Assembly: GCA_973895155.1 (NCBI GenBank)
Contig: OZ316893.1
Location: 15,468,645 to 15,532,644 of the forward strand
DNA: 64,000 nucleotides
Direction of reading: 5' to 3'
Source: Marsupella aquatica
Taxonomy: Eukaryota; Plantae; Marchantiophyta
Made by a program: the position numbers and the translations under genes. Below, in pieces: positions 6,047 to 64,000 of the stretch. The first letter of the stretch is position 1. Each line of letters opens with the position of its first letter. The notes beneath the pieces are model-generated. The model was given only the letters and a program-made list of their open reading frames with translations. It ran no database searches and was not told the DNA's origin.

Positions 6047-6333
6047 TTTAGGGTGCTGAAAATAGTCAAAGAATGAAAGACAAGCATCTCAATGAAGACA
6101 TCATATGATCTAGGATCAATAAAGTTTTTTTAAGGAATTTTTTTACCCCTAGTTTAATGGAATATTCCCATATTTGATTAAAAAACCCTATGATTCTTAT
6201 AATTAACAAAATTGGATTAAAATAACCCTAATTTTCTTCAACAAAAATTTAAAAGTATTTCACTAAACCCAATGAAAAACTCTATACTTATTCGCACGTG
6301 ATGGGTCGGAAGAAAAGAAGTGAGGACCCTGTG
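6047..6333. mobile_element. ~300-bp MITE, degenerate copy of the family at 37817-38113
   Basis: Internal similarity to the reverse complement of 37817-38113 (ggaatattcc...ttcttataa...aaaattggattaaaa...cgcacgtgatg). The right end is gtgaggaccctg; the left end is eroded. Confidence 0.6.
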
Positions 6334-6585
6334 TCAAAAACTTGCAGCAACAACCAAGGTGGAGCTCCAAAGTCCCATTATTGAAGAATATATGATCTAG
6401 GTTGTGTTTTTTTTTGAAGAGTGAAGAATATAATCTGAAGTTTGGGCTATTTTGCACCTTGAGAACTATTATATTTATGCATTTTTGGCTAAGATTTTAT
6501 CTCACCCTTTATCTCACCCAGCCTATTCAATCAATGGCCCGAAGATCGTATAGTGCCCAACGACCATGCATGTGGTCGCTTTCTG

Positions 6586-6894
6586 CTGGGGGCTTCAATC
6601 CAAGGGATGTACCATCTCATGCGTGAAGCTTTCAAGTAATAAACACCCTAAAACTTAATAAAATAAAGTTAGTAGATTTAAAATATTTTTAACCCCTAAC
6701 TTTAATGAATATTCTAGGAATATTCTCACATTTGGTATAAAACCTTAAGTTCTTATAATTCTCAAAATTGGATTAAAACAACCCAAATTTTTTTCAACAA
6801 ATTTTTTAAAGTCTTCCGTGCAATTGAATTAAAAAACCTCTAATTAACTTCTTTGCGCGAGATAAGTCGGAAGAAAAAAAGTGAGGACCCTGGG
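6586..6894. mobile_element. ~309-bp MITE, same family as 37817-38113
   Basis: Ends are ctgggggcttca...gtgaggaccctggg. The interior is colinear with the reverse complement of 37817-38113. Flanking 8-mers gctttctg / cctttttg match at 6 of 8 positions (eroded TSD). Confidence 0.7.
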
Positions 6895-41120: not shown

Positions 41121-44100
41121 GAAGAATTTAGCATGAGTGTATATGCAATTGTTCCTCTAGGGTACTAGAGCATCATATTCACTTTCTTAGATGTAGTATT
41201 AGTTTAGTTCACCTTTCGGCATGATGTCTATAAGTAACCTGATATATTATTATCTGGTACTAGTTTTGTTTACCTATATAAAAGGTGTAGCCTGTGTAAG
41301 ATCAAGTTTTTGATGCAAAACAATATCAATATGCATAATCTATATTTATGATTCTGAATCGTTTGCATGTTTATATAGCATTCATACTTTTAAAAAGTCA
41401 AGGGTGTTTTCAATTATTTGGAAACCTCTTTTATAAGTTACTCAAGGGTCAAATTTAATAGTAAAAATTAATATTTTTATATTAACAAGAGATATTTTAA
41501 TGAAGAAAAAAATATTAAGAAGGGGTACAAGGGGGGGTCTGTTCTCAGGGGGGTTCACTTAATATACTAAGAGTGAGGGCCCAGGGGCAATTACCTTCCT
41601 CGCATAACTGCTCTACGTCAACCATAGCTTGCCAGCCTCCAAGTCCCTAGTGATCTCCATACCCAAAATCCTCTTAGCTGGCCCTAAGTCCTTCATCTTA
41701 AACTCTGCACTAAGTAGTGCCTTGAGCTTAACAATCTCAGACCTATCCTTGGCCGCAATTAGCATGTCATCCACATAAAGTACTAAAACAATGAACCCAA
41801 AGACAACATTCTTTACCGGTTTAAGATACACACATGGGTCAAACACACTCCTGTGAAAGCCTTGTGCATGAATCCAATCATCAAACCGCTTATTCCACTG
41901 GCTTGGTGACTGCTTCAACCCGTACAAGGATCTCAGCAATCTACAAACCAAATCCTCTTGCCCTTTCTTCACAAAACCTAGCGGCTGTCTCATGAAGATT
42001 ACCTCTTCCAAGGTGCCATAGAGGAAAGCTGTGACAACATCCATTTGATCTAGCAACAGACCAAACATAACAACAAGCACACACAATAGCCGTATTGTTG
42101 AGTACTTAGCAACTGATGAGAAGACCTCATTATAATCCACACCTTTTTCTTGTGTGAATCCCTTGGCTACCAACCTAGCCTTGTAGACCTTCGATCCACC
42201 TCCTATGGACTAATCCTTCAGCTTGTATATCCACTTGCTGTCCACCACTTGCTGTCCCTTAGGCAGCTTGACAAGCTCCCAAGTTTTGTTGTCCTTCAGT
42301 GACTGCATCTCCATTTGCATTGCTGCAGTCCACTCCTGCTTCTCCTTTGAAGCACTTGCTTCATGAAATGAAGAAGGTTCACCTTCTTCCAAAATCAACG
42401 CATCACCCTCATCGTCAGTAACAAAATCCTCCTCTTGCAACTGAGATGAATCAACCCACTATCCATACCTTGGTGGAGCGCGTACAGTGCGACCAGATGC
42501 TCTTCTAGCCGATGACTGCGGTTGATCTGCGTGTGCTGGTACAATTTGAAGCTCAACAGCATCCACTTGCTGCTCACCAGCATCAACAAACTCCTCTGGT
42601 TCCTCTGGCACAGGAACCAACTCCATAAACTCCATCAACAAACTCCTTCTCTCCGGTCATGCACCTCATGACCAATCTCCCCCTCAACGAGATCCGGGAT
42701 AGGAGATTTTCCTTTGTCAGTACGGGAGACCTGAGTATTCTCCCCCTCTTTCAATAATCTGGATTCATTGAAGAAAACATCCCTACTGACAACGAGCTTA
42801 CAGGCAATAGGATCCCATAGCCTATAGGCTTTCACACCACTTTGGTACCCAAGAAAAACACATTTTTTGGAGGTAGGATCCAACTTGGTCCTATTCTACT
42901 TTGGTGTGAAAGCATATGCATCACTTTCAAAAACTACCAAGCCATGATAGTCTGCTTGCCGCTTATAGCGCATCTCAAATGGCATTTTGAAATTGATAGC
43001 ACTAGAAGGAGAAAGATTTACCAAATAAGTTGCGGTATTGACAGCTTCTGCCCAAAATTCCTGTGATAAACCTGATTGGCTCAACATACTCCGCGACCAC
43101 TCCAATAGTGTCTGATTGAGCCTCTCAGCGACACCATTCTGCTGCGGAGTATAAACTATGGTGAGATGGTGAGTTATCCCCTGTTCTGAACAGTACTCTT
43201 CAAATTCCACTGAAGTGTACTCCCCGCCGTTGTCTGACCTCAGACTCTTCACCCTTGTATCCAAACACTTGACCGTGTTTCCAGTTTGATTCTCCACCTG
43301 GGCCTTCCACTTCTTAAAAATGGACAAGACAGATCAGACTTAAGCGTCATGAAATAAATCCACACAAATCTTGAGTAATCGTCAATAAATGATACATAGT
43401 ACAACTTTCCAGAGTGTGAGGGAGTTGGGGATGGATCCCACACGTCACTATGTATGTACTCAAGAACCGCTTTGGAACGATGAGTTCCAACATCGAAAGC
43501 ACGACGATGCTGCTTTCCAAGAATGCAATGCTCACAAAACTCTAATTTACAAGATTGCAAATCAGAGATGAGTCTATTCTTCCGTAAGATAGCCAAACCC
43601 TTCTCACTCATGTGGCCTAGCCGTGAATATATGCCACAATTGAGTCATCTCCTTGTGAGACTTGGTTACATTGGCCTCTCCACATACAGTATTGCCTTGC
43701 AACATATACAAATTCTTTTGTCTGCTCCCTGACCTGACTGACTTGAAGTTCACCATCAACAACGCTCCATTGATGACCATTTGAATCCAACACACCGAGT
43801 GAAATCAAATTCTTACGCATGCCAGGTACATACCTGACTCAGACACTGTGCGCACAGTGCCATCAAACATTTGAATCTTCACAGACCCAATACCCTCTAT
43901 TTGACAAGAGTGATCATTTCCCATCAGAACTGAACCGTTTGAAATAGAGTAAGAATGAAAAACTCATGAATGTAACAAATGTGAAAAGAGCAAGCACAAT
44001 CAAGAATCCACACATCATCTACTCTCCGAAGTGACATGCACAGGGCATACCCCTGGCTTCATAATACATACTCATCATTGAGTAAATCATCATCTCCATC

Positions 44101-44155: not shown

Positions 44156-45363
44156 CATGATTTCCGACCAAACGAGAACTATTTTCGCATGCAAACGAGA
44201 AGTGTGTTTTCATTTTCCACCAAATCTCGCGAAATCGGTGGTTTTTTTTATCAAAAACAGGTTTTGGGGGAAATAATGTAATCTGTATCGGAGTTTGGAT
44301 TGAATCAGGAAATTCAGGAATGGAACCCTAAACCTATATCGGACTTCGGATTTCAACCATGAAAGTTTTGACCGAATCTCAATTTCCCCAGTTTTTGGTT
44401 ATTTACCGTAATTATTTTACATCACAGTCGATAAGAAATTACCGCACAGTTTGTCAAAATTACCTTGCAGTTATCTCCACAATTGACCATAGTAACCACA
44501 TACATGCATAGTCAATATGCCGTTGTCTCAACAACAATGCGCAGTCCGATAAAATTATCGTGGCAACTCCGAACGGCAAAAATACTTGCCAACAATACTA
44601 AGATCCTTCGGTTCATCGGTTAAATTTCAAAATTGCAACTATCCATATTAAGAAAACACTTTTTGCAATACCAACATCAGATAAATTTATCGCTGCAATT
44701 TCAAAATTGCAACTTTCCATATGAAGGAAACACTTTTTGCAATACCAACATCAGATAGATTTATCGCTTAAATTTCAAAACTACATAATTTCTCCACGAT
44801 GCACGTGTAAGAATCAAATTGGAAATCCAAGAAGTATACCCTTCTTTGCTATTTTGTCGTTTAGTGAGACGGCCAATCAAAAGTGGCCACGTGGGCCAAC
44901 CCCTCAACAGACACTATAAAAGGGCCACCGCCGATAAGTTTTTGGCGTCATTATCGAGAGTAGAGTTTCTCAAGTTGTGTTCTTGGAGCAACATTTTGTC
45001 GGTTGAGCCATTCGTTTTCCCTGATTGAGGGAGGAATGCAAAGCCCCATAGTGTCTCGAATAGCCATGTCTCAATCAGACACAAATTCACCTTCAAGTTC
45101 AGTTGAATCCTCTCCTAATGTTGTCGCTCGTTGTTTGCCAAGTTGCATACTTAAAGCTCTACCTCTCTCACAGCAGATAGTGCCCAAATTTTCTAACGCT
45201 GATGCAAGTTCTGGTCCTGAGCCCAGTTCTTACTATGTGTCGCCTAGTACACCTGAGAAGCGTCGTCTCTTGAGCGTTCCATCGCCAAGGAATGAGAAAA
45301 TTACAATCCCAGGTTTAGGTCTGAGACGCGCTTCAGGCCATCCATCCCGGGTTATGGAGAGGA
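44156..45363 (+). mobile_element. Left end (1.2 kb) of a DNA transposon, copy 1, interrupted by a second copy of the same family
   Basis: Begins CATGATTTCCGACC exactly where the Copia gag breaks. It is colinear with 45365-46833 and stops at ...gttatggagagga, where copy 2 starts. Confidence 0.75.
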
Positions 45364-47559
45364 ACACGATTTCGGACCGAACGAGAACTATTTCCTCTAA
45401 ACGAGAAGTGTATTTTCATTTTCCGCCGAATCTTCCAAAATTGGCAGTTTTTTTCATCAAAAACACGTTTTTGGGGAAATAATGTAATTCGTATCGGAGT
45501 TCAGATTAAAATAGCAAATTTAATAATGATCAAAACCAATGAAATTCATGCTAACAAACATTCATATTATCAAGGAACAATTAGATCTGAAAAACTTTCT
45601 CCTCAACCTCATATTCACGCTCTCCAAAAATATATGAACTTAGGTCTTATCTATAAATCCATATCCACGTTTCGAGCCAAGTGCGATAACTGTATCGGAC
45701 TCCGGATTTGAGCCATGAAAGCTCCGACCCAATCTCAGTTTTCTCAGTTTTTTGATATTTACCAAAAATATTTTACATCACAGTCGATAAGAATTACTGC
45801 ACGGTTCGTCAAACTTACCTTGCAGTTACCTCCGCAATTGACCAGTTACCTCCGCAATTGACCAGTTACCTCCGCAAGTGACCATAGTCAACATGCCATT
45901 CTTTCAACAGCAATGCGCAGTCCGATAAAATTATCGTGAAAACTACAGGCGACAAAAATACTAGTCGACAATACTAAGATCCTCCGGTTCATCGGTTAAA
46001 TTTCAAAATTCCTATCCATATGAAGAAAACTCTTTGCAATACCAACATCAGATAAATTTATCGCTTCAATTTCAAAATTGCAACTTCCATATGAAGGAAC
46101 CACTTTTGCAATACCAACATCAGATAAATTTATCGCTTCAATTTCAAATTGCAACTTCCATATGAAGGAACCACTTTTGCAATACCAACATCAGATAAAT
46201 TTATTGCTTCAATTTCAAAACTATATAATTTTGCCACGATGCACGTGTGAGAATGAAATTGGAAATCCAAGAAATATACCCTTTTCTGCTATTTTGTCGT
46301 TTAGGGTGACAGCCAATCAAAAGTGGACACATGGGCCAACCCCTCAACAGACACTATAAAAGGGCCATCGCCGATAAGTTTTTGGCGTCATTATCGAGAG
46401 TAGAGTTTTGGGAGTTGTGTTCTTGGAGCAACATTCTGTCCGTTGAGCCTTTCGTTTTCCCTGATTGCGGGAGGAATGCAAAGCCCCATAGTGTCTCGGA
46501 TAGCCATGTCTCAATCAGACACAGATTCACCTTCCAGTTCAGTTGAATCCTCTCCTTCCAGTTCAGTTGAATCCTCTCCTAATCTTGTCGCTCGCTATTT
46601 GCCAGGTCGCATACTTAAAGCTCTACCTCTCTCACAGCAAATAGTGCCCAAAATCTCTGACTCAGATTTTGATGCAAGTTCTGGTCCTGAGCCTAGTGCT
46701 TACTATGTGTCGCCTAGTAAACCTGAGAAGCGTCGTCTCTTGAGCGTTCCATCGCCAAGAAATGAGAAACTTTCAATCCCAAGTTTAGGTCCAAGACGTC
46801 ACTTCAGGCCATCCATCCCGGGTTATGGAGAGGATATCCGGCAACCGATACGCATATCGCAATCGGCATTCAAGTCGCCACATTCAACACAAGTTCAATG
46901 ACGGATCTTTCAGTCTCCGGGTGAGGATCGGGACACAAAAATACAAAGACCGATACGGCGATCGGTCTTTGCATTGCCTGGACTGGATGTGCGAGCAAGC
47001 GAGGGAATCGGACTGCGAAGTTCAGACTCGGCCCTTTCTCGAATGGTCCGTGGGAATCGTGGTGAACAAGTGCTCAATTTTCCAGCAACTCGCGGAGTCG
47101 TTGGGACTGCACGTGCGAATCCAGAATCTCCAAGTTCTCAAGGGCGGACTGTCATTGGTTCTAGGCTCCAAGTATCGAGGAGAGGTCTTAGTGGCGTTTG
47201 GGTTATGTATAGAGAGCCACGGAGTCCAATTGTGTTTTCAGATGAGTCGAGTGCATCGGAGGACAAAGATGAGGAAGGAGATAGAGAATCCAATATAATA
47301 GCACAAGTTGTGTCTGAATGTTTAGAAGGAGCTGTCAAAGAGAATAGTTATAGTCGTCTATTTAGTGCCCCTCTAAATGCGTCAAGGAGATCTATAGAGG
47401 ATGGTAGCTCAGCAGAGAGTGATGCATCTATTCGCGAGGCACCTGAAGGACCCGAAAATGCCAATGTTATGAACGGATTTCAGGCTGTAGAGAAGTCAAA
47501 TGAGCCTAGTAAAAAAGATAGGGACCAAATTACTAGGAAAGACAATGTGACAAATGACA

Positions 47560-48180
47560 AATTGAATAGAAACAAAATGAGATAAATTCATAAGTATTCG
47601 TGTTGTGATAATTACTGTCTGAGGAATTTGGGTCTGCTAGCCGTGACGAAACAACGCACTTATTACTATGGGCTATCCTACCCAGAGAAGAATGTCCTTC
47701 TAAGAGGATGTGTGAAGGGTGAGCATGCTGGTGCAAGTGGTTACTCAGTTAGCGGTAGATCCTTTTGTCGGAGTGGTTTTAAGAAATTATTTTCACTAGG
47801 AAATAATCGTCTCCAAAAAATCTCGTAGAACATGTTTTCTCGGATACAGATCGGTACAGTTTGTCGAGAAAAATCACCCGCACATCTTGGTCTCGTCCAA
47901 TGGCTGGATGATTTTTTTTCCACAAATGTCGAGAGTCTTCCCAACAAGGATATCTTTCATTTACCTGACAATTGGACAAAAACAGAAGTTTTTGATGCCT
48001 GCCAGTCTGAAACTCTAATGCGCCAAGAACAAGGCATGACATATTCGTGGTTTGTTCGCATTTGGAACAAGGAGTTTCCTCGTGTGCGCATCCCCAAAAG
48101 GAGCCGTTTCTCCACCTGCGCCCCGTGTATTGAATTCAAAGCACTCCGTGACAAGGCAACACTCGAAGCAGAAAAGAGTA
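47560..48180 (+). pseudogene. N-terminal part of a Sola-like (DUF7869-associated type) transposase, truncated before the catalytic domain
   Basis: YSVSGRSFCRSGFKKLFSLGNNRL, then after a stop WLDDFF...HLP...YSWFVRIWNKEFPRVRIPKRSRFSTCAPC. These resemble the VCxxxF..lgI..rl and FxxxW...F...CxxC motifs of Sola-type transposases. Confidence 0.55.
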
Positions 48181-48470
48181 AGTTTCTAAACTTGTGTGTT
48201 ACTCCCGATAATTTTATCGGGTTGAGTATTCATGTGCTTCTTCTTTGGTCATGTGAGTGAATATATCGTTTGAACAGTTTGAATACTAAACCTGATAAAT
48301 TTATCGTTGTCACAGTTTTTCATTACGGTCTTGTGTTTGAATACTGAACCTGATAAATTTATCGTTGTCAGGGTTTATCATTACGGTCTCGTGTTTGAAT
48401 ACTGAACTTCCCCGACACAAAACATTTACTCAACTGACACAATTGACATCATTGTTGTTAGGCGGTTTCG

Positions 48471-51186
48471 ATGGATACTGAGGCTCCATCGACAGTTGAT
48501 GGAGTCGTGGGTGTCGAATCGATACAAAACACGGTAGAACCACAGGTCCCAGTCAATGTACTTGGTAAACGTAGTGCAAAGAAACCTTCTAAGGTAGCAA
48601 CACCTCCTGCATGTGATGAGAAGCCAAAAGCCTCTAGAGGCAAGAATGTTGAGAAGCTCGTGGAGTCTTGGGATACAGCAGAGTTCCAAAAGGATGCATC
48701 TTATTTTGCATTGACGTTTGGACTCCCCGATGAAGGCGAGAATCCGTATAAGATAAGTGATATTCGTGACAATGATTTGGCTGCATGCTTTGGAGAGAAA
48801 AAAAGGAGCGGTTATAAGCTGAATAACTGCGTAGGTGTTCCCATTGAAGACATACTACATCTATCCCAAGTTGTGGATGGGTATGAGAAACCAGTGAATG
48901 GAGTTTTGGCTCATACATTTGTGAAAGGGGCCTACGCTGAGCGAGTTCTTCATAGGAAAGTCAATTGGGCAGGATATGCGGCTGCTAAGCTGAAGGGACA
49001 GATTTTGCAATGGGAGCAAGAGGGGAAAGGTAGGCCTGATGGGCCTCCTTGTGTCTAGAAGCCATGTTTCTACCAACCGCCGGTGCCTGAAGAGTTTGAT
49101 ACAGAGACTAAGGATGTAGTTCAAGCAATTCAGAGAGCCTCCGCATCAACTGATGCATCCAAGGAGTTGAAGATCTGCCTTTGGGATAATGCAGCTGGTG
49201 CGATGGACATCGGGCAGAGCAAAGCGGATACACACTTGTCTTTGGACAGTTTGGACATCCCGAAGGTTCATTTCATTCCTGAAGCTGGGCCCCCTGCACT
49301 GTTATTGGGAATTCTTGACTCTGCAATATTGTTAACAGAGATCCGACTACGTGAGACTCACCAGGATTTTGCTACGGTTGAAACAAGCTTGGAGAGACTA
49401 CATATGTCTATACGGGATCACCCAAGAACGCTTGCAAAACTCAGTGATGATTTCAGAACTAGGGAGATGGAGGTAGCTGAAGTTGGGCAGAGCATAGAGT
49501 CAACAGACAACGCAATTGAAGAACTTACGACTGAGCTTGAGCTAGAGCAAAACACAGAAGAAGTCGAGAACAATGAGGTATTAATATTTGTTGCTTAAAT
49601 TCTTGCTAAGTTTGTTTCTTAGATGTGTAAGAGAATGCATAGCGGAGCCTTTCCCTGAAGTGAAGCGTAATGTACTCTCAAGTATGTCATTGCTAGTTTG
49701 CAGCAACCACATTGTCAATCTATAGTTTTCCATGCTACGTAGCTAGACCTGTATTGCGTTCCGCATTTGTGTAACTTAACAGTGTAGACTGTTAGTCCAA
49801 CAATCAAGGTACTAGAATCTTACAATGGAAAGTGCTTCTTGTCCATGATTACAGGGGATCACTCAGTACACATTCATTTTGGAAGACCGGCTTAAGGCTG
49901 AAAAGGCAAAAATTGTGGAGTTGAAGGAGCGCCAAGGAACCGTTGTGAAGGAGTTGAACACATTGGAGCAGCTCATTGAAGTTGACCGGAAGCGGTATGA
50001 GACCTTGCCAGGGATGGTGGACCGATTGAGAAAAGTGGCTGCAGTACTGGAGTTGAAATTGAAGGAACTCAAGTTAGCCGAGGGAGCTCAAAGGTCTGAA
50101 TATTCTACTTTGGCAGCGGTACTTGGCAATCCGTGTCCGCAATTGAGACCCACCTTTGTTGCAACATCAGCTCATGCAAAGGCAACCCAAGTTACAGTAT
50201 TGGGTTGTCCAGTTTGTTGCAATGGCTATCATTGTTAAAATTGGATCCTAGCATCGTGTGGGCACACCTATCATCCAAGCTGCCTATTTCGTTTGATTGG
50301 TGGTAACTCAGAGACTGCTCCAAAGTGTTTTGCTTGTGGGACACTTTTCTCTAATGATTGGTTGCAAAGTTGGGGCTTGCCCATCAAGGGAGATCCGGAG
50401 CAGACGCGTGTTTCTTACATCGAAGACCTGAAAGAAGTGTACGGGAAGCACAGTATTCATCTTGGAAAACGAAGACAACTTGGAGAGCAAATGCAATATT
50501 TGCAACAAAGGGTACATCTACTTTTGTCTCAACTGCATTGTATTACCTCTCTACTTTGTATCAATCTTTTGTTTGCATTTATCTTCACCTACTGTAGAAA
50601 ACCCATTGCATCGGTTGAACTTCATTGAATTCATAATGCATGGCATGTGTTGACACTTGAAATAATTAAGAGAATATCTCAAGTCACAGTCATCCATCTT
50701 TTCAGATTAGAAGAAATTATGACAAAGTTGAGATTATCATCGATCAGGTGTCAGCATTCAATTTCCTCATTATTAATTTGGTTGTATGTATGTGTCCAGG
50801 AAAATGTCTATGCCCAAACAGAAATCTTCTTGAGTTCTTCAGAGGCTATCTTATGCAAACCGGCTGATGACAGTGAAGACCAGTCATCTAAAATGCCTTT
50901 CTTGACACCCAAAGTGGAGGGTGCGGATTTGAAGAAAAGACCGAGGGCTGTGGGGACTGTGGAATCCGCTAGGAAGGTGACAAGTAGATCTTTGACAAGT
51001 TTAGAGAATAACACGATGCCCTTTAACCCAGAGTCTCCATCTCAAGTTTCCTTCAAGCGGATGTTAGAACTTGTTGAGGCTGTCCCTGGACATCCAAACC
51101 CGGAATTGCCCCCACCTGATGGAGTGAAGAGTGTTTGCTCTAAACCATCAACCAAGTCCAGAAAGAAAATGGGGCTTTATCCTTGA
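48471..51186 (+). pseudogene. Multi-exon TE accessory gene: KVNWA-type domain + coiled coil + RING-H2 finger, with premature stops
   Basis: Consecutive plus-strand ORFs separated by in-frame stops and GT-AG introns. The RING-H2 pattern CPVC...(stop)...SCGHTYHPSC...CFAC lies at ~50205-50340. Confidence 0.65.
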
Positions 51187-52013
51187 GCCTGGAGTTACAA
51201 GCTGGCAAGTTTGCCCACTGATTGGACTGACTTCTATGTAATATCTATAATACAGTTAGTCTTGGGTTGATTTTGAATTGTTGAGTTAGTTGATAACACT
51301 GAGCGTTTGTTCTGTGCAGCAATCATCTCGAGCCAAGCGTGTGTCCTATTTCTGAACATAGTCAAGCAACAGGTTGAAAGGTAACTTTGATCCTTGCACT
51401 CCAAATTTTGCTTAACAATTAGGTAATTTGTGCATGTCCTTATTATAAACTAGGTATATCCTTTGCTTTGGTAGTCTTAGAGTACAGAAGGAACCAGATC
51501 GATTCCTTGAGATTAATGAGACTTCAAGCTGTATAGATCTGATTCAGGACTCCAAGGAGTGGCAGTTCTCTTAGAAGGACTTCTACTCATTCAGAAATGC
51601 AATCTGCGTCCTTCACAAAGGACTGAAGGTCATTCGCCGAGGACTCCTAGTCCATCTCTATGATCTAGGGTCCTTGAGTGTAAGCAAGGTTTGGTCTTTT
51701 CCCAAGGGGATCAACTACCACGTCCTTTCCAAGGACTTGAACTCCTCTGGAAATTAAGGAGTTTGACTCCTTTGGGAAGGAGTTCGTGTCTTTTGGAAAG
51801 GAGTTCGACTCCTTTGGAAAGGAGCCAGAGTCCTTTTTCCAATAATTGGGGTCCTTGGCCTAGTCATTATACTGTGTGCCTGAGCAGTGTGCTTGAAAAG
51901 CGTCAAACTTCAGCGTCAAATTAACCATAGTTTAAATCAATGCACCAAATAGTTTCTCACTCATTTGTAATAGATTGAGTCTCATGCACGCTCCTTTTGT
52001 TGGATTTGTGCAG

Positions 52014-52685
52014 ATGGACAAGAAAGACTTATTCTGCACTTTGAAGAGGGCCAAGATTGACTCGATGTGGGGGTTGTGTGCTGGAGCTTTTGTGTATGAA
52101 GGTTGTGGTGTATTGTTGAAGGATGGAAGGGCGTGTTCCTTGGGGAAGCACAAACGTAAACTCAGGAGGCAGGATCAGTCACCATTTGGTCCTCATTCTC
52201 GGAGTAGGTTGGAGCATATTTGTTGTGAAGATGGCAGTGGCACGTACATGTTTTGTTTTGCTGTGCAGGTTGGTGATGTTGTCATCCAGGTGAACGAAGA
52301 TAAGGGCCTGCAATTGATGGGGATTTTGGGACAGTTGTTCAAGGAGTCTTGCAAACTTGACAAATCAAAGAGAACTGAAATTTGTGAACATGTGATGAGT
52401 TTGTTGTGGACGATTACTTATGTGAAAGATGAATGTGCAAATGATCTGCCTCGGGCTGTGAGATTTGAACAGTGCCCCTCTGAAGCTGATGGTGAGACCG
52501 AGGGTGCGACAAGCTTTGTAGAGTGCCCCTTGGATGTAGATGGTGACAAAGAGGATTCCAAGTTAAAATCAGAGAAGCATACGGATAGGAGATTTACTTC
52601 ATCATTAGGCAGATTGAAGGATGCTATTACTGATTTATCAGGGGACATAGTACATTCGTTGAAGTCATTTCGCATCCATGAGTAG
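52014..52685 (+). CDS. Putative RPA1 C-terminal OB-fold-like protein (divergent)
   Basis: Open 223-aa frame after a tgtgcag acceptor. FVYEGCGVLLKDGRACS...C...YMFCFAVQV...EDKGLQLMG resembles the RPA70 DBD-C pattern YxAC...C...RYxLxxxxxD...GxxxMG. Confidence 0.4.
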   Translation: MDKKDLFCTLKRAKIDSMWGLCAGAFVYEGCGVLLKDGRACSLGKHKRKLRRQDQSPFGPHSRSRLEHICCEDGSGTYMFCFAVQVGDVVIQVNEDKGLQLMGILGQLFKESCKLDKSKRTEICEHVMSLLWTITYVKDECANDLPRAVRFEQCPSEADGETEGATSFVECPLDVDGDKEDSKLKSEKHTDRRFTSSLGRLKDAITDLSGDIVHSLKSFRIHE

Positions 52686-55600
52686 ACATTTCATTTCAGC
52701 ACTATAAGTAGCCAGACAAAAATTTTGTAAATCCCATCTAGCAGAACAAAAGTGGCTAATTTTACAGTTTTGAAGGATTTCAGAGAGTACGTCTTTGATG
52801 TTTTGGAGTTCTGCTATCTCTTTTGGAGTTTGCACATGACTTTTATATATATATAAAGATCCTGAGCATTTTCAATAACTTTTGGTGATCCTTGCAAGCA
52901 CAAGAAAGAGTTTGACTGGGAGTTTTGTGATGGAAACTAAGATGGAAACATAGACTCACTGGACTTCAAAGAAGCTCAGCATTTACTCTCGAGTGTAGAA
53001 ACTTTGTATGTGTAGGCAATTACGTGAACAGTGCGGCATGCTTGATTGATCCATCATTTGGTTGAGATGCCACTACTACATATTGGCCCCTTTTGCGAAG
53101 CTTTTTTTTGACGCCGGGATGGTCTTGCGATGTCATCGACTTCAGATATTTTGTGATCAAACACGCATCACAATAAACCATGCTCACAGGTTCGCAACAT
53201 GGCGTTGTGAAGCTAAATACCTCGCAATTTGTTTGAGATCGGATTGAATTCGCAACTCTTTCAGATACTATTCGTCTCGCAAAGTATTTGTGGATCCGCG
53301 ACCATCGCGACTGCATTTGGATCTCTTTTGTTTCATAATTTAGCGATAATAATGTACTCAAATATATCTTGTGAACCTATTAGCTTCGCACAATATTGTG
53401 AAGTATAAATAGTCGCAAGTTACCAAAGCCAGTTGATTCGCAAAGTTGAGAACCCATTGGCATCACAATTACCGATGGTGTGTTATTCACAAAGTGTTTA
53501 GAAGTTGCTTCTTGACAAGCTTGAAAATGTTTTGCAAAGAGAGTTGTTTGAAAATTTTGTAGAATGGAAATGTTTGAGAGAGTTTCTTTACAAGATGGAG
53601 AATGCATGTGTTTAGGTTACAGCTAGGGTTTTCAAAAAGGTGGCATGCATGAGGATAGCTTTGGAAACGGCTAGGGTTGCATATATAACAGTGAGATGAA
53701 ATTTCAAAGTCCAATTAAGTGTTTGTAAAACAAAAGAAGAAAAGTAATATGTTAATATAAATAAAACCATGATAGTTAGTTTAGGGTCAAATTCTGGGCC
53801 CACAACAAGTTTTACTACTAGTGCATCAAACCTGGTCCTCATCCTCACCTCCATTTGACACAATAATAACGTCAGGTTTTTCCGAGATAATGGAACGGGA
53901 CCGTGGCACATACGGTATAACAACTGACCACTCTAGGTCTGGTGGGTACGGAATATAGAAACACTGCTCAAGGTGACTTGGGAATGTAAATGGTTCAGAT
54001 GTTTGCCAATGAGATGGTTGAAAGCTAGTTGCTGATGTCTTCAGTCGAGTAAACCCACACTCATCAAGAAGTACCGTGCGATTATCACCAACCAGGTGAA
54101 TTCTGAACCACTTACACTTGAAGACATACTCTTCAAATTTGGAATCGGCATCATAGGATATGATCAAGATCTCTTCAATCTTCCCATAGTGAGGCACCAC
54201 ATCTCTGATCACATTAGTGTCATGACGACTACTTTGTGAATCTTGCATGAACTGCCCTTGAACTCCACAATCAAAAGTTCTTCCCCTCTTCTCATCAAGG
54301 TCAGAAATCCTTAAATGCCTCCCTTGTGTCCACATTGCTGTTCTGGTTTGAACAAGTCTTAAAGGACCATGAACAATTGTTCGAACCTCAGGAGTCATAT
54401 CTGGAAAATGTGATACATTCTCACCTTGGGCCACCATAGCATCCAACTGAAGTACTTTCTCCTTCATATACTCAAGGAACTTTGGAAAGATCCTTGGGCG
54501 ATGACTCTCCCTCTTTGCATCCTCATAAAACTCTCTCCAATCTTCCATCACATTGCTGTTACTCAACATGAAAGTACTAACCTGTGTCAACTCCACTGCG
54601 GTTAGTAAGCATGTTTTTTTTGCACCTGTTAAACGGTCCTCCTCCACTTCCCTCTCTTCCATCCAAGTGCGTGGACAACTAGGATCAATGGTAGCTAAGA
54701 TGTTAAAACATACTCTCATCTGCCAAGTATCCAGTTGCCATGCTCCCCTCCACTCGTGCACGGTTCCGTACATAAGCCTTTAACACGGCCATATACCTTT
54801 CCAGCCAATACATCCACCTACAATGCACCGGACCGGCAATGGCAACCTCCCTCACAAGATGAACGAGAAGATGCACCTGACAATCAAAGAAGGAAGGAGG
54901 GAGGGCCTTCTCCAACTTGCATACCACCTCTGCTGCCAATACCTCCATCCGTGGTATCTCTTCTTCATATATTTCCTTTGAGCATATCCATCTCAAAAAA
55001 GTGCCCAGTGACCAAAGGGCGTCTTGCACTTCTTCACTCCCCAAACCTATGATTGCCACAGGAAGTATATGTTGTAGTAAACGATGATAGTCATGTGTCT
55101 TGAGATACATTGGCCATTTATGACTTTCCTCCATCCCAAAAGCCTTACGTAGATTGGCACCATAGCCTGTAGGAAACCGCATCTGCCCTATGCGTTGTCG
55201 AAACTCTCTTCTTTCACCAACACTCAAAACCCATGGAGCTGAAGGACGATGTTCCATCCCTATGGATTCATCAACTGTTATCCATACATCTGGATGTCGT
55301 TCTAGATCCTGGCATGCCTCCCTAAAATTAATGTTCTTTTCCCCATAAAAGTGCTTGATCAAAGCCTTCCCAACATTTCCCTCTATATGCATGGGGTCTA
55401 ACAAGTGATGAATCTTCAACTCAGGCCAATAGGGCAAAGTGGCCAGTATACCCCACCTTGTCAATCCACTACCATCAAATCCCATGGCATCTTCAGGGTC
55501 TGCCACCCTATCAGCTATGGATTTCCAATACGAAAATGTTGTGCGGTCAGGTATCTCACGCTCATCACCATTGATCATGTCAAAGTCTGAAAACAAAAGG

Positions 55601-56195
55601 GGGTCAGACCTCATGTGATGCCCAAGTGGAAGAAACTTGGTATGACCAAGGTAGATTATCTTGTGCAGCCATTTTGAGTACTTGGCCATATCGTGAAGGC
55701 TTGGACCACAAGTGGAGCATGCCTTGTACCCTTGAGTTTGGAACCCAGAAACAAACCCAAACCCTGCTCACAAAATAACATTCTCAATTAGAGTCAAAGG
55801 AATTGAAAAGTTCATGTACATAGAATTAAAGAGGGACTTCCTTCCAAACAAACTTGATCTCCAATACATGAAAAAAATACAAATCCATACGTACCACTCA
55901 CCTGGATAGTCATGCATGGTCCACATAATGATTCCCTTCAATTGGAAGACACGTGGTAACCCTCCTGTAGTTGTCCGACCATCATATGCCCATACACCCC
56001 CCCATAATTTATGGAGTTCCCCAACCAAGAGTGCCAAGTAGGTGTCCATGTTTTTTACCTTAGATGGACCTGGGATAATCAATGATAGCAATAAGAATCC
56101 CTTTTTCATGGACAACCATGGGGGAAGGTTGTAATTCATAACAACCACCGGCCAAACCGAAGTAGGGCGCCCTTTCCCTCCAAGGGAGTGTGGGC

Positions 56196-58551
56196 TGTGA
56201 CGCCAATGACATGGTCCTTATTTTGTAATCTGATTAAGTAGGTTGCTGTATGCAAGGAGTAGCTATTGATATTGCATAACAATTAGCAAGATGGCAAGAA
56301 TAAGGGCAATCATGGCGTTAAGAGTAGGGAAATAAAAGCTATGTCGCAGGTGGTCGGTGACCATATCTCTTTCAATATGTCACCAAATCCGGATCTGTAA
56401 AGAGCATTGGAAAGATCTGGTCAAGGCGAGTAAAATCGATATAAAACACTCGGGAAACGGAGGTGTATTAAGAAAGATACGGCCTGATTAGTGTGACGGG
56501 TTAACTTGTGGCCGGAATTAGCGGATTCGGCTTCAGTTTCGGGTTAACCCAAGTTCGACCACGGCTTAGCTTATGTGAGCACGGCTTCAGCTTAGCTCAG
56601 GTCAGCACGGCTTCAGCTTAGCTTAGGTAAGCACGGCTTCAGCTTATCTCAGGTAAGAACGGCTTCAGCTTAGCTCAGGTCAGCACGGCTTCAGCTTAGC
56701 TCAGGTCAACACGGCTTCAGCTTAGCTCAGGTCAGCGCGGCCTCAGGTTAGCATAGGTAAGCTCGGATTCGGGCTCAGCTTAGGCTAGGTTAGCGGATAG
56801 CGGATAGCGGGTAGCGGCCTAACCCGAGACCACGGGTTAGCTCTACTCGGGTTAGATAGGATAGCTAGGTTAGCCAAACTCGGGTTAGCGCAGCAGTGAG
56901 TACCCCCTCTCGGTTGCGGGGGCATAACTCTCTGTGTATTTGATCAAATCGGCTATAATTGACCTCGTTGGAAAGAGGAGCTCAAGCCGCTTCCAACGTT
57001 GCTATCCACGCAGAAAATGGTTAAATAGAGAAATTGGGAGAGGAGGCGCAAGCTCGCAAAAACCATGGAGGAGGGCCGAATCCGAAGTACATAGCCAATT
57101 CGAGATAGAAATAAAGTTGCGAGTTAGGGTTCAGTAGTTAGAGATAGTGGCGGCTCTGTTAGGGCTGGGATGGGGCTCCAGCAGCATAGTATCCACCCAT
57201 TTGGGCTCAGTATGAGAGAGTATATAGAGCATCCCTCCGGTAGAGGCAGGGGGGGACTTCAGTTGTGTGATCTCACTTAGACTGAGTAGCGGGGAGGAGC
57301 TCTGTGCAAGCAAGGCTGGACTTGGACGCTGCGTGTTGGGGAGAGCTTGGTTGTGCTATTACTCAGGGAGTAATCAGCCAAGCTTCACAACAACGGGTTG
57401 CTAGGTTTGCGAGCTGGATTGTGGCTCTTTCTAGTGGGCAGCACAACTGGGTTCTTTTCCCCCGATACAGAGCCTTGGTGATAGGTGATGTATTGGTGAT
57501 TGTAAACTGTGGGGAGGATTTCAATTCGATTTGCGGTGGGCACATTAGGGAGGCTGAGGTACTGATTAAGGGGCAGTAGGAGGAGCATTTACAGTTCAGT
57601 CTGGCAAGGCTACGTGATCCATGGGGAGTCCCGGCCTTTGTCTGGTGGAGAGCACTAAGGGATCTATGGCCAGAGCTGAGCTTGCAGGGCAAGCGTGAGG
57701 CCGGGCCTCATTGCAGTCTGGGATAGATCGCCGTTAGGCCTGGTACCAGCTTTGAAGTCGAGTCAACTATGCATGCGTAACTTGACGTTCTGAATTGGAG
57801 GTGTGAGATCTGTATGTGCCCCCAAGAATGAAGTGTAGTGAAGGAGGTTGAGTTCAGGATTGAGCTTGCATGGCAAGCACGGGGCTTGCAGGGCAAGCAC
57901 GTCACAATCTGGAGGAGACAGCCTTCGGCCCTAGTGTTCGGATCAAGTGTTCTCAGTGAACTATTGTGCACATCTTTGAATCTAATTGAGTTTTCCTCTC
58001 AGGCCTCATTTCTCTCATGGATGTGTGTGTGTGTGAGGCAATCTGAGTGTATGATGGAACTAGCAGCGCCACTGAGAGGTGTACCGGGTGCATTGAAGCG
58101 GGCTGGGTGAGGACTGTCATAGCTCTGATTGTTGAGAGTGGAATGGCAGAGTGGTGGGGCAATGGCTTAGAAGTCCCTAAGCCAGGAATCAGTCAGGAGT
58201 CACTGGTTTATGGGTACATTCCGGCGGCGGAATAGAAACATACCTATGACAGTAAGCATATGTATAGACCTATGCGCACCGTAGCGCTAGGCCCTGTGTG
58301 TACGGGCCCGATATGAAGACCCCTTCTCACCAGAACTATCATGAGCGCAGATCTGATCCCCAACCTTGGTTCCTTGGGATTGAGCTTGGGTGATGTGTGA
58401 TAGAGTCTTGCTATGATAGTCTGGTGTTAAGGGCATAAACTGGTGTTTACCGGCATTCACAACATCCCTTCGTGATCCTCAGGTACAAGGAGATGGTTTT
58501 GGCACCCATAGTGACGTTTTTGGTGTTAAGACCCATGTCAATCGCGTGACA
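56196..58551. mobile_element. 2,356-bp solo LTR (probably Gypsy-type) inserted in the CACTA transposase
   Basis: TG...CA ends with a short terminal inverted repeat (tgtgacgccaatgacatgg / ccatgtcaatcgcgtgaca) and a perfect 5-bp TSD TGGGC. Removal restores DGVSPHSLGGK. Confidence 0.85.
56559..56790. repeat. 26-bp tandem repeat (~8 copies) inside the solo LTR
   Basis: cacggcttcagcttagctcaggtcag repeated with small variation. Confidence 0.9.
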
Positions 58552-59605
58552 TGGGCTTACCCCATCTGATGCCAACCCCAACCTCACATGACGAGGGTCA
58601 CGTGCAAACTCTGGCCATTGTGACTCCACATGCTTGTGAGCAGGGGAATCAACTGGCAACCGCATGACACCGGCCTCTGATCGATGTGTCTTATGCCATA
58701 CCATCAATTCTGCCAAGTCAGAACATCGGTACATGTGCAACAATCGAGGAATAATAGAAAACCAACGAACAGCTTTTCTAGGCACCTTTGAGGTCAACAT
58801 GTTGGTTTCATATCGAGGCTCTTGACAAATTGGACACTCAGTTGCGCTGGCATTGGTCTCATGATAGAGAATGCAGTCATTCACACAAGCATAAATGATA
58901 TGGTATTCCATGCCAATGGATGATAGAACCCTCTTTGCCTCCTTCCAAGTTCCTGGCAACACATTTTCACTAGGTAACAAGAGATCATGGCAAATTGCAA
59001 ACAAATCCGATAGTAGCGCATTGCTTGCCTTGTGTTTTGCCTGAAGATTCATCAATGCCAAGATGGTAGATAGTCTATTCAAACGAGCACCCCCATAAAT
59101 AGGTGTTCTAGCATGTGCCTCAGCTTCTTCCCAGGCATTGTTTTTGTCCTTCAGGTGTACGTTGAGGCCTTGGATCATGTGCAATATTTGGTGGAGGGTC
59201 TCCTTCATTGGGTGGGACACCTCCTTCACCACCAATGTCTACACCAAACCAATCTGTCATGAAGTCATCCATGGCTGACTCTTGGTCTTGCATGACCTCA
59301 TAATCTGTCCGAGGTTCCCCTTCATCTGGACTGTCATTATCATTGTCACTTGATGAGAAATCTGCTGATGATGTTTCCCCGTCTTGTGGCAAGCCCATTT
59401 CTTGATATGTAGCTCTCAACCTCCTTGGCAACATATCTTGACTAGGCCGCACATTCTATAGACAATACAATAAAGCATTCACAATGAAATTAACGCCAAA
59501 TATAGTAGTGCTCGAAACATATTATTAACAATATAAAAAAAACATGTCATTAAAAAACATACGTTCACATACGATGAACGTATAATACATGTCCCTAAAG
59601 TAATC

Positions 59606-60420
59606 CTAATCCCATTCATAATGTGTAAACAACTCCTCTCCAGCCAGAATGGTCCTATTAGCTACAACTAGACAATGGTCATGATGATATCTCTGCCCAT
59701 AAGGGGCTGGAGGGGGACCATCAACAAAAACCCATTCACAGTTTTTCCTACGCTTAGGCCGGGTCCCCACAGTACTGTTGATGAAACCGGCAATATTCCC
59801 ACTACGGATGGGATCACCATCAATTATACGCTGGTCACAATACTTTCTGGTGCAACCATCAAAAGTATCCATGTCCAATGCATAAGTCTTCCACTCAGGG
59901 TGTTGAACAAGGATCATGTTCCAATGTCTCCTCTTGTAAATGGGTCCACCATACGGGAACAACGTTGGTCCATCTGAAGAGCGCCCTTTTCCACCCATAT
60001 CATCCACAATAATGTCCTGACAAGAGAAAATCCCATACCCATGCCTCTCCCCTAGGGTCGAACTCTTGACAACCCAACGTCTTCCCCAAACTTCTATCTC
60101 CTCACCATAGGTTATATCACATGGCAAACCAAGGCACTCCGGATTCCAATCCTTTATGATAAGAACACACTTCCCTGTGAAGGTACAAGGGCCCCATCTA
60201 CCATCAACCCTACAAGTGTACTAATCCACTTCCCCTCTAGGCTGTCTTTTTGACTTTTTTTCCCTCTTGTAACAATACCGTCACCCTGAATTTTCCCAAC
60301 ACTACCTTGCCCTGCTGCCACTAAACGAAAAGCTTGTGAAAGTGCCGAGCCTATAGCATCTAGAACTCCTTGTGAGGGAACATAGGGTGTTGGTGTAGTG
60401 GGTGTAGGCCTACTGGATAC
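59606..60420 (-). CDS. SET-domain (lysine methyltransferase-like) coding region nested in the first coding intron of the CACTA transposase
   Basis: ORF 59606-60127: VVKSSTLGERHGYGIFSCQDI...FPYGG...YALD...IDGDPIRSGNIAGFINST...NCEW...VVANRTILAGEELFTHYEW, covering the SET motifs GxGxF, YxG, (R)FINHS-like and GEELxxxY. A phase-0 acceptor lies at 60421. Confidence 0.85.
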
Positions 60421-61195
60421 CTATAGGAAGAAATGGAACCAAGTGAGTGTGATGAACCTCCCAAATTTTATTTTATGCTACCTAGCAAGATTTACAAAAT
60501 AAAATGGAAATCACAGTAAGTTTACAACTCACCATACGGGATGAAGAAGCTCCCGGTGTAAGACCTCGATGTTGGCCATATCGAGCAATGTGTTCCGCAC
60601 ATACATATGACTTTTGGACAACCATCCCCACACATTTTTTACAACCACAAAGTTGGCGTGGTGGACCACTAGGTCGACGTACGGTTGGTTCAGGCTGAGG
60701 AGGAGGACGACTTTCTTCATCGGAAGAGGAATCTGATGTGGTGGAAGTTGTAGAGGATGAAGACATCTGACAAGTATAGCAATTGGAAGGCGATTAGTAA
60801 AAACTTCACCAAAACCATTGATAATCCCTACCTAAACATATTAAAAATAATTGACAGAAAAATACCTTTATGAGACTCGGGCTTAGCAATGCCTTGACGG
60901 ATCTTGTGGCTCAAATTTCATGAACCAAATCTGGAAGGAGGGGAAAATCTGCCAATATACAATGAATTAAGCCATGCCTTATGGTGAACCAGAAAAAAAG
61001 GATGATAGATTGTAACCCTCCATATTTACAGCAATGACTAGAAATGCATGAGAAAACGTTATACCTTTCAGATGCCCGGGCTCTCACAAGGCATTATCAT
61101 GCATTAGCCAAAACTTTAAAAAACATGGGGAAGTGCCCTACAACGCCAAAGAGTTTTCCTCTCCATGTTAATGAGATAGACAAAGAAATATAAGT

Positions 61196-61773
61196 AACCC
61201 AAACCCTACCCTAAACCCAAACCATGAAATGAAACCCTTCATTAAAACCTAACCCAAATCCCTCAATCACCCTAAACCCTTACCCTTATCCTAACCAATA
61301 CCCAAATCCCTCATTAAAAATTCAAACCTTTACCCTAAACCCAAACCCCTACCCTAAACCCAAACCATGAAATGAAACCCTTCATTAAAACCTAACCCAA
61401 ATCCCTCAATCACCCTAAACCCTTACCCTTATCCTAACCAATACCCAAATCCCTCATTAAAAATTCAAACCTTTACCCTAAACCCAAACCCCTACCCTAA
61501 ACCCAAACCATGAAATGAAACCCTTCATTAAAACCTAACCCAAATCCCTCAAGCACCCTAAACCCTTACCCTTATCCTAACCAATACCCAAATCCCTCAT
61601 TAAAAATTCAAACCTTTACCCTAAACCCAAACCCCTACCCTAAACCCAAACCATGAAATGAAACCCTTCATTAAAACCTAACCCAAATCCCTCAAGCACC
61701 CTAAACCCTTACCCTTATCCTAACCAATACCCAAATCCCTCATTAAAAATTCAAACCTTTACCCTAAACCCAA
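61196..61773. repeat. 143-bp tandem repeat x4, C/A-rich with CCCTAAA-like motifs
   Basis: The marker atgaaatgaaaccc recurs at 61224, 61367, 61510 and 61653. Units are nearly identical. Confidence 0.95.
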
Positions 61774-62770
61774 CCCAAATCTCCCAATTACATATAAAAC
61801 CCTTACCCTACCTACACCTTACTTTACCTATATAGGCCAACCCCCACCCCTATAGTTATTCTAAACTTCACCCTAACCCCTAAATTGAGGCCCTTTTTTA
61901 AAACTTAAGCAAAAATTGTACCCCCTCAATTAGAACCAAATCCAACCCTATATCATGTTACACCCCAACCCAAACACTTACATTAGAAACCCAACCCCTT
62001 TAAAAAAACCACAATTAAACCCCCCAACTAAAAACCAAACCCAATCCCTTTAAAAAACAACCACAATTCAACCCCTCAACTAAAACCAAACCCAACCCCT
62101 GTAATTACTCACAACCTAATGCAAACCTCTACCTTGAACCCTAAGCCAAACCCATTCATTTAAACCCAACCCTTTTATTCCAACCTAACCCAAGTTTTAA
62201 CCCCCTTAATTAAACCAAATACTCCTAGATTAAAACCAAATATAAACCTAACCTTTAATTAAACCCAAACCTTTGTTAACTTATATTCTAGTTATCCTTA
62301 CAACCCAAACATCCATTGACACCCCTTCCATGTTAACTTATGGGCACTTAACATACCTTAAATGTCATTTGACAAACCTTAATAGCCGTTTGACACCCCA
62401 AAGTATTTTCCAACCCTAAACCGATAAGACCTGCCTTGCAAATTATTTCACAAGTTAGAGAATCTTTTTGCGAACCTACGACCTTCGCACTTACTTCGCA
62501 AAAACAGAGGCCGAGAACGATTTTTTGGGTCTTCTGCGGGTTGCGATGGCTTTGCGAAGGGAATAGATTCGGAAGTTCCTCGCAAGTTGCGAGACTATTT
62601 GCGAGGGCGCGGGCTTCGCAGTTTCCCATGCGTATGTCATCGCAAACCCGTTTTTGAACGGCGTAAACATCGGCGGGAGCTCGCATTCGGGCTCATTTCA
62701 GTTTTTGAGCGAGACGAGAAGGGCCGGGGCGCGCGCAACAGTACGAGGGAGACTGTGAGAGAGGGGAGCT

Positions 62771-63796
62771 ATGGCTACCGGTGAGGGGAGTGGAGGGCAA
62801 GGTGGTAGTGGTAGTGGTAGTGGCAATGGGGGAAATCCAGAGAAAGAGAAGAATGCCTGGGCAGACTTAGTGGCCCAACATCTCAGTGCTGCACAATTGG
62901 GAGAAGTGAATCTCAATTCTCCAGCAGGGCTTGCCTCTTTGAGTGCCATTCTTGGACAGGTTTTGCAAACTGGGATTGTAGCAGGACAAGCTACTAGAGA
63001 GGGGGAGGAGAGGGCCGCAGCTGAAGAGAAGGCTAGAGAGAAAAAAGGAAGAGAGAGGAAAGAACTAAGTCGGGAGTTGCATCTCCTCAAGCCCTAGAGA
63101 AGCAGAAGAGAAGAGAGGAGAGAGATTCAATTCGAAAACAGAGGGAGGAGCAACATTAGAAAGAGGAAGCAAGAAAAAAACTTCCATTCATTGCCTTGGA
63201 GACGAGTGGGACTCCAACTGAGATAGCGTATGCAGGGGCTAAGAGCACAATCAAGCAGATTATCACAAGCAATTTCTCACGAGGCATGCAGTGGGGGAAG
63301 ATTGAGAAGGCAGAGCGAAAGAGGGTCATCAACCAAATCAAGGATGCATTTCGCAATGGGCTTGACATAGATGAGCAATGGTTGGCAGATAAGATTTCAA
63401 ATTCTATGTCTCAAATGCAATACCATGACAGGATGAAGATTAGAGCCCACCTAAAAGACTTGAGATCATACAGGAACTTGCACAGACCCCTCCACTTCAC
63501 CGAGGACATCTGGAATTCGTTTTACAAGATTGAGGTGCAAATTAAGGCAGCTCACGAGTTGGAAGAGTGGAAGGGCAATCTAGATCGCCTTGAAAGCAAA
63601 GGAGGCCGGGAAGCTCCCCCCTGACCACGACCTGAAGCCACTTGAGTAGAAGGTAGCTGAGATGCAGAAGATGGCCGACCAGGAGGGAAAGCCACCCAAG
63701 CGTTTCACAAATGCAGCCAAACGAGTGAAATCCACCCCCAATCCAGTCCACAAGTTGGGTCAAGGCGGGCTCCCCGGCCTCAAGTCACACTTTGTG
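62771..63796 (+). pseudogene. CACTA TnpA/Ptta-like (Transposase_24-type) second gene, divergent from TnpD, with stop and frameshift
   Basis: MATGEGSGG..., WGKIEKAERKRVINQIKDAF...RPLHFTEDIWNSF and KRFTNAAKRVKSTPNPVHKLGQGG resemble TnpA/Ptta motifs. A GTGAGT donor lies at ~63794. Confidence 0.6.
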
Positions 63797-64000
63797 AGTG
63801 CCTCTTGCTCCTCCCTAACCTCTCTATTCCTTTCAGAGTTGTGCAATGCAAGTGAATGACATCCCCGAAGGTTCTTGCTGTTGTGCATGCTTGCTTGGTT
63901 ACTAGTTTAGGGCAACTCTGACACTTAGAATTTTGGGCAAATTTTTAAAAACTCTCGGGAACACAGTTTGCGAAGGTGTTGCGATGCGCATTTGTTCGCA

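Follow-up and report, generated by a model that had tools for sequence, protein, structure and literature searches.

A CACTA transposon of the liverwort Marsupella aquatica carries, directly behind the first coding exon of its transposase, an exon that encodes a predicted SET domain, and this layout is common to moss and liverwort sequences. We regard it as an even proposition that the element makes two splice forms, one of them a lysine methyltransferase that would place marks on the chromatin of the element itself and keep the element active. The analysis started from a window of 64,000 nucleotides, to which all coordinates refer unless another locus is named. The following features of one copy of the element lie in the window, given here with their strands.

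53071-53085, + strand: CACTA 3' terminal inverted repeat CACTACTACATATTG, with the identical 15 letters at the end of locus L021
53093-53443, unstranded: subterminal TTGCGA cluster, 8 copies, against 0.11 expected from the remainder of the window
53826-59455, - strand: TnpD-type transposase body, broken, with Pfam matches to Transposase_21, DUF4218 and DUF4216; its pieces are contiguous in related loci
56196-58551, unstranded: solo-LTR-like insertion of 2356 bp, with TG...CA ends, a terminal inverted match and 5-bp GCCCA duplicated on both sides
59456-59605, - strand: AT-rich gap of 150 nt from the SET stop to the TnpD acceptor; predicted 3' end of the SET isoform (presumed polyadenylation) and distal phase-0 acceptor
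59606-60420, - strand: SET exon, with a short helix, a basic linker, a family-specific N-terminal extension and the SET domain (Pfam, profile, model, Foldseek)
60221-60261, - strand: two lesions, an A-run (60261-60255) short by one base and a stop, TAG, at 60223-60221; the contigs of sequencing runs X1, X2 and X5 read otherwise at each
60421-60532, - strand: predicted GT-AG intron, 112 nt, phase 0, from exon 1 to the SET exon; donor and acceptor are kept in related loci
60533-60766, - strand: first coding exon, 234 nt, 78 codons, with a Ser/acidic tail and a CxCxxC...H module (predicted zinc-binding, transposase-associated)
61055-61912, unstranded: tandem array of a 143-bp repeat with many telomere-like TTTAGGG units, upstream of exon 1
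62468-62645, unstranded: second TTGCGA cluster, 8 copies, between the divergent genes (0.09 expected)
62771-63856, + strand: third element gene, divergent, in pieces, end approximate; same place and orientation in nine loci

The terminus at 53071 and the layout across loci place the SET exon inside a CACTA element. In the M. aquatica window, flank contigs of three sequencing runs end at 53070, and in run X1 the summed depth rises from 54-92 to at least 538 at 53071, a depth that is not to be equated with copy number. The CACTA termini are inverted, CACTACTACA at 53071 and in L021 and CACTACAACA opposite, the two ends being seen in separate copies. In relatives the opposite terminus reads CACTACAACA next to three different flanks (L006, L009/L038 and L040); the second end of the window element lies beyond 64000. 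These three left-end flanks, many differing contigs and the depth step at 53071 characterize a dispersed multi-copy family. Read from the CACTACAACA end, the element consists of the divergent gene, a spacer, exon 1, the SET exon, the 150-nt gap, TnpD and the terminus, in roughly 10 kb and with a TNP2-type transposase. Downstream of SET, the Transposase_21, DUF4218 and DUF4216 matches are spread over four frames, that to DUF4216 falling below cut-off, and no TnpA-type Pfam match was found in the window element. The region of the 143-bp array gave no alignment to related loci.

An earlier note on this DNA, made from its letters, had called the SET domain and named a PF00856 search and a structure prediction as checks, and both agree with the call. 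The open reading frame at 60220-59609 matches PF00856 above cut-off (E 4e-6; 27.6 bits, cut-off 22.4), and the final structure model, built from a 91-row alignment, reaches a mean pLDDT of 92.1 and a pTM of 0.87 over all 204 residues; an earlier model with a pLDDT of 41 was discarded. Foldseek matched the model to SET8, MLL1, LegAS4 and G9a at a probability of 1.0 (E 1e-7 to 1e-6, identity 14-23%, TM 0.45-0.52 by query length), and viral SETs matched it about equally well. PDB searches with a single sequence or a narrow profile returned no match; the 91-row profile returned RomA/LegAS4 as its best match (E 3e-6). The SET core occupies about 60082-59609, with Y90 at 59953, Y113 at 59884, N148 at 59779 and Y201 at 59620. 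The motif details given in the note are likewise all present, namely GxG (as GYG), GEELxxxY (as GEELFTHY), RFINHS altered to GFINST, and the absence of post-SET cysteines, the protein stopping three residues past its last Tyr. With SET8/KMT5A, the MLL1 SET, RomA/LegAS4 and viral SETs the domain shares its fold and the aligned catalytic and SAM-binding positions, and its end is SET8-style. It differs from these compact enzymes in sequence (the 14-23% identity above), in a 46-residue family-specific N-terminal extension and in having GFINS for RFINH.

Conservation across the 91 rows (23-80% identity) bears on whether such a domain could work. Kept residues are G63 (83/84), G92 (86/87), Y95 (87/87), Y113 (82/89), N148 (76/85) and Y201 (64/70), and G63, N148 and Y201 supply the GxG, the SAM-binding Asn and the terminal catalytic Tyr. 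The usual SET motif, RxxNH, is absent in its canonical form, with Gly for Arg (G145, 76/84) and Ser for His (S149, 79/85), and position Y90 is Phe in 22/87 rows. All five of G63, Y90, Y113, N148 and Y201 are exact in 36 of 63 complete rows, or in 54 of 63 with Phe allowed at 90 or 113. RomA/LegAS4 is an active H3K14 methyltransferase, and its catalytically dead allele alters Tyr135, Ser158, Tyr159, Asn181, Tyr220 and Tyr231. Counted along the printed profile alignment, the first five align with Y90, T112, Y113, N148 and Y201; the sixth, Tyr231, falls past the end of the element SET protein and has no counterpart. LegAS4 also lacks the His of the NH motif but retains the Arg. Because five of six active-site residues of this active enzyme have counterparts, a working enzyme is likelier than a decoy, and judging by these alignments the SET domain of intact members probably binds SAM and transfers methyl groups. 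Position 199 of the SET protein is small, not aromatic, which under the F/Y-switch rules would leave space for several methyl groups.

Exon 60766-60533, its donor, the acceptors at 60421 and 59456, their phases, and a GT at 60305 and CAG at 60175 all lie where the earlier note had put them. The module of exon 1 reads C40-x-C42-xx-C45...H59, and a GTGAGT donor stands behind the exon. Its match to PF13963 (Transpos_assoc) is weak (E 0.0087; 16.7 bits, below the cut-off of 27.7), and a zinc-module profile built from nine members finds the module in 15 proteins. The TAG acceptors ending at 60421 and 59456 are both in phase 0. Across related loci the phase-0 GT donor of exon 1 is kept in 17/17, the SET acceptor in 15/17 and the TnpD acceptor in 21/23, where its AG stands before N-[IV]-R-P-S codons (21/23); a gap of like length separates the SET stop from the TnpD acceptor in 22/22. 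From the TnpD acceptor to the first Met there are seven codons, NVRPSQD in the window and NIRPSED in a Sphagnum-like family of loci, and their conservation with synonymous changes argues for translation from an upstream phase-0 exon. In the SET frame of the window family the first Met is residue 75, which lies within the domain and past the GxG, so that an upstream exon is needed there as well. Among 27 complete ends of the SET domain, 26 terminate in a stop codon, and at the 12 phase-0 GT positions in the SET part no locus has a GT[AG]AG donor.

Since the donor and both phase-0 acceptors are conserved, alternative splicing from one donor to two acceptors is likely and is the simplest reading. 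The proposal of the earlier note that SET shares exon 1 with TnpD by way of two acceptors is thus most likely right, as judged from splice sites kept in DNA. Three annotated proteins (P0001, P0005 and P0046) consist of exon 1 joined to the full SET exon; an annotated protein of exon 1 plus TnpD was not retrieved in insensitive searches, one of which gave a single protein and missed P0001 and P0005. Contigs of six of 11 sequencing runs (X1-X5 and X8), of unrecorded kind, contain no joint at the splice sites, a result that weighs neither for nor against splicing. In the Sphagnum-like family and L004 an in-frame Met lies 4-6 codons past the SET acceptor and the TnpD Met is at codon 8, so that translation of either frame could begin independently of exon 1. 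Another exon may lie still farther upstream, to judge from an AG immediately ahead of the exon-1 ATG and from the longer N-terminal part of P0154.

The SET exon is not confined to the window copy, and it has 50 relatives at 47-81% identity, those named coming from five Sphagnum species and Calypogeia fissa. At E<=0.001 there are 93 clusters, reaching down to about 30% identity, among which P0127 is a spurious repeat-protein match. Among 30 clusters looked up, the named organisms were Riccia sorocarpa (4) and Calypogeia fissa (2), with no vascular plant among these six; by name, the family's relatives appear to be bryophytes, both mosses and liverworts. Horizontal transfer between the two groups is conceivable, given 70-77% identity. 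In the 41 metagenome loci of relatives that we collected, TnpD follows the SET stop in 22/22 loci with a complete SET end and at least 300 nt beyond it, and exon 1 precedes SET in 16/17. Left out of these counts were loci in which SET breaks off mid-domain with no TnpD downstream (L023, L035, L036) or the match starts mid-domain with no exon 1 upstream (L022, L030, L033, L034), loci with short flanks, and L041, which is weak and was not recovered locally. A single Sphagnum-like family supplies 38 of 40 loci, so the counts represent about three lineages rather than dozens; the few independent lineages are the window family, the Sphagnum-like family, L004 and the Riccia models. Two Riccia gene models of uncertain support, P0084 and P0123, combine SET and transposase sequence. 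Among distant members, P0056, P0061, P0079 and P0093 have the Cys/His module, and P0084, P0123 and P0120 run into transposase sequence. Zinc-module and TnpD-linked members are scattered over several branches of a quick tree (79 rows, without bootstrap, used for scatter alone). Other distant SET relatives sit on long branches without the zinc module (P0117, P0121 (Calypogeia), P0102, P0106, P0114, P0118, P0126 and P0136); they may be members of other elements and bear on the origin of the family.

Selection was assessed by Nei-Gojobori counts of the window against each locus, in pairs that share one side and are not independent. Over 40 loci the SET exon has a median dN of 0.205, dS of 1.27 and dN/dS of 0.157 (range 0.10-0.20), so the conservation at dN/dS below 1 that the earlier note had named as a check is found, at a level similar to the transposase (TnpD core, 0.105-0.169), and the SET exon is under purifying selection. 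The ratio is 0.30 for exon 1 and 0.136 for the divergent gene. Among young, close copies dN/dS is near 1, and stops occur in 11 of 26 long SET copies. A low ratio between families and one of about 1 in young copies are as expected if selection acts on the gene during transposition and inserted copies evolve neutrally. Among the 93 clusters there is no close parent of SET from a host or a virus, and contig scans confirmed 0 of 30 viral candidates and 0 of 38 in prokaryotes. PHROGs gave one weak match among 91 members, and an Atlas neighbour, a 187-aa phage SET cluster (0.92, 158 shared features), is a lead only.

The window copy is dead. Its reading frame changes on passing from the first part of exon 2 to the second; contigs of sister copies (X1, X2, X5) have an A-run (60261-60255) that is one base longer, and their codon at 60223 is no stop. 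Of 17 related loci, 14 keep the linker in frame and three are short of a single base. TnpD is damaged by a frameshift near 59130, the LTR-like insertion and an 8-base loss near 54703; relatives are without these frameshifts, and sister contigs show an empty insertion site and extra bases in TnpD. The insertion, from its ends presumably a solo LTR, splits TnpD just past the first catalytic Asp motif, and its site is empty in related loci too; it holds a 26-bp tandem array at 56525-56784. A further phase-1 intron at 60305-60175, which the earlier note had offered as a way around the frameshift and stop, has to be abandoned. Its GT and AG letters exist, but the acceptor AG is absent in 29/29 related loci, the intron would remove a conserved 'GRWG.C.FTG' stretch that is confidently folded in the model, and the linker it bypasses is the one in frame in 14/17 loci and free of frameshift and stop in sister copies. 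With the rescue intron failing and the contigs of X1, X2 and X5 intact at both places, the fallback of that note, two lesions in this copy, is correct.

The divergent gene (dN/dS 0.14) has a counterpart in L006 at about 6900-8900 (-). Its product begins with Gly/Ser, contains a stretch rich in lysine and a conserved part of helical appearance, and has no Pfam family and no usable Atlas match. The divergent gene itself contains TTGCGA clusters, as do the element ends and the space between the genes; in L006 they lie at 6276-6473, 6697-6847, 7596-7750 and 8803-9044, L009 has a matching cluster, and the window has a further site at 63968-63984. We infer that the clusters are candidate binding sites of an element protein, and the divergent gene product is a candidate DNA-binding partner of these arrays. 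TTGCGA contains CG and could be methylation-sensitive.

SETMAR/Metnase also sets a SET domain beside a transposase, as a domesticated single-copy host fusion. The bryophyte SET exon differs in that it ends in a conserved stop and moves with a multi-copy element, and a single frame of the SETMAR type occurs only in the Riccia gene models. VANC of the Mutator-like VANDAL elements is, as far as its available description goes, a functional model for element-encoded, sequence-directed anti-silencing, but it is no methyltransferase and comes from a different superfamily. Red-algal Plavaka elements, of the EnSpm/CACTA superfamily, have an accessory gene with SET, PAG2 (bioRxiv 10.1101/2025.02.11.637652). 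In the accessible part of that source, SET is likewise a conserved cargo of an EnSpm/CACTA-superfamily element, with a chromatin role only proposed; PAG2, however, is a separate gene that combines an N6-adenine methylase with SET in giant elements of 17-19 kb, whereas, comparing by description, the bryophyte SET exon stands behind the transposase's first exon and its small Cys/His module. No adenine methylase domain was found in 55 SET relatives scanned, and the transposase is TNP2-type, not Plavaka. HarbingerS and MuDR elements of Phytophthora (PMC12730594) and Helitrons (bioRxiv 10.1101/2025.02.11.637652) are, in the available text of these sources, further DNA transposons that carry a SET methyltransferase gene; HarbingerS and MuDR belong to other superfamilies and oomycete hosts, and that text mentions no exon shared with the transposase.

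The splicing itself has a parallel in maize En/Spm and Arabidopsis ENSPM3, for which TnpA/TnpD splicing and anti-silencing by TnpA are described (10.64898/2026.08.24.746577; PMC13547354). There, as far as the accessible portions of these sources go, one transcription unit gives a transposase and an accessory protein, as would be the case here, and TnpA counters silencing via clustered motifs; TnpA differs in being a DNA-binding factor without a SET domain. The available part of PMC13547354 finds TnpA-like domains only in flowering plants and does not contain the term 'SET domain', and that of PMC11982613 has nothing on SET-carrying transposons. We found no published report of a SET exon in a land-plant CACTA element in a full-text search with sparse coverage of subscription literature and Repbase Reports; Repbase may already list such an element. 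The earlier note, too, knew of no description of this architecture in plant CACTA elements. The novelty is smaller than that note implied, because a SET accessory gene is already known, in the accessible descriptions, from an EnSpm/CACTA-superfamily element (red-algal Plavaka) and from other transposons.

In the mechanism that we propose, use of the near acceptor would give a form that terminates in the 150-nt gap and consists of the zinc module, the basic linker and SET, and use of the far acceptor would skip the SET exon and give the zinc module with TnpD. From the conserved sites, it is likely that both forms are made. The SET form would methylate histones on element chromatin, leaving the element expressed or accessible. 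It would be brought there by the zinc module common to both forms, by the transposase complex, or by the divergent gene's product at the TTGCGA arrays. If the enzyme is active, we lean somewhat towards a histone tail on element chromatin, reached by one of these routes, as its target; the mark could be either activating or self-dampening. Selection would act at transposition, and inserted copies, the window copy included, would decay. A more specific version, in which a bryophyte CACTA histone methyltransferase, with the transposase's zinc module spliced to SET, writes a protective mark at TTGCGA arrays in place of the flowering-plant TnpA, is possible but on balance doubtful.

The substrate and the activity are where this mechanism meets its main competitors. 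An active SET could instead modify a non-histone substrate, such as the transposase, the lysine-rich divergent product or a host silencing factor, and thereby tune transposition. The kept active-site residues and the conservation in the element of a divergent gene with lysine-rich stretches are compatible with this, and an identity to histone-acting SETs of only 14-23% does not reveal the substrate; histone methyltransferases are nonetheless the top matches by structure and by profile, in a PDB rich in these, and we consider a non-histone target rather unlikely. The family-wide loss of the Arg and His of RxxNH, the Phe at position 90 in 22/87 rows and the absent post-SET region would fit a reader or decoy that has lost catalysis, binds histone tails or SAM, and protects element chromatin from methyltransferases of the host. 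Such a decoy seems unlikely to us, since N148, Y201, G63 and Y113 are held across deep divergence and the lack of that His does not keep LegAS4 from being active; deviations from RxxNH occur in two further active enzymes, PRDM9 and the Chlorella-virus vSET.

Two other explanations dispense with the shared exon or with function altogether. SET and TnpD might be separate genes with their own starts, as the Met close past both acceptors in the Sphagnum-like family would allow and as the split genes of some Arabidopsis En/Spm families, in the accessible accounts, would parallel, or they might form one SETMAR-like fusion of the kind that the Riccia gene models join. Both arrangements are improbable in view of the stop after SET, the lack of a consensus donor inside the SET part, the window family's SET frame without an early Met and the conserved codons before the TnpD Met. 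Neutral capture of a host gene fragment by a Pack-CACTA element, now decaying, could account for the broken window copy, for the stops in long SET copies and for the ratio of about 1 among young copies. It is very hard to reconcile with a transposase-like dN/dS of 0.16 between families, which refutes it unless that ratio is an artefact of alignment, with the layout common to moss and liverwort sequences, and with the lack of a close host or viral parent among the 93 clusters and in the viral and prokaryote scans, and we give it almost no credence.

The remainder of the window contains other mobile and host-like sequences. Frames at 48462-52685 (+), just outside the terminus, include coiled-coil-like and RING-like pieces (weak Pfam matches) and are absent from related loci; they are probably another element or gene. 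Three long open frames at 35682-40696 (+), of 728, 379 and 462 aa, have Cys/His motifs and no Pfam match and give the impression of an unclassified transposase. A duplicated block of about 1.4 kb at 44193-46901, with 71-bp repeats, adjoins a Cys-containing frame at 47829-48260 and is possibly the end of another element. Decayed Copia-like retrotransposon fragments were recognized by eye from translations at 29483-30466 and 41613-43644 (-). Host-like genes comprise an intronless HSP70-like frame at 23086-24984 (+), a GIL1/IRKI-domain frame at 20650-22014 (-) and the start of a photolyase/cryptochrome gene at 1-503 (-).

For the SET genes on oomycete and red-algal transposons, the available parts of the sources describe no tested function. 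The family reported here is compact and well-folding and has intact members in sequenced mosses and liverworts, which are transformable plants, so that the question of whether transposons write their own histone marks becomes directly testable. Its SET exons are annotated as host 'SET domain-containing proteins' and may inflate SET gene counts in bryophytes. If the enzyme is active and self-targeted, it would represent an enzymatic anti-silencing route in plants in addition to VANC and TnpA and would put En/Spm alternative splicing to a new use.
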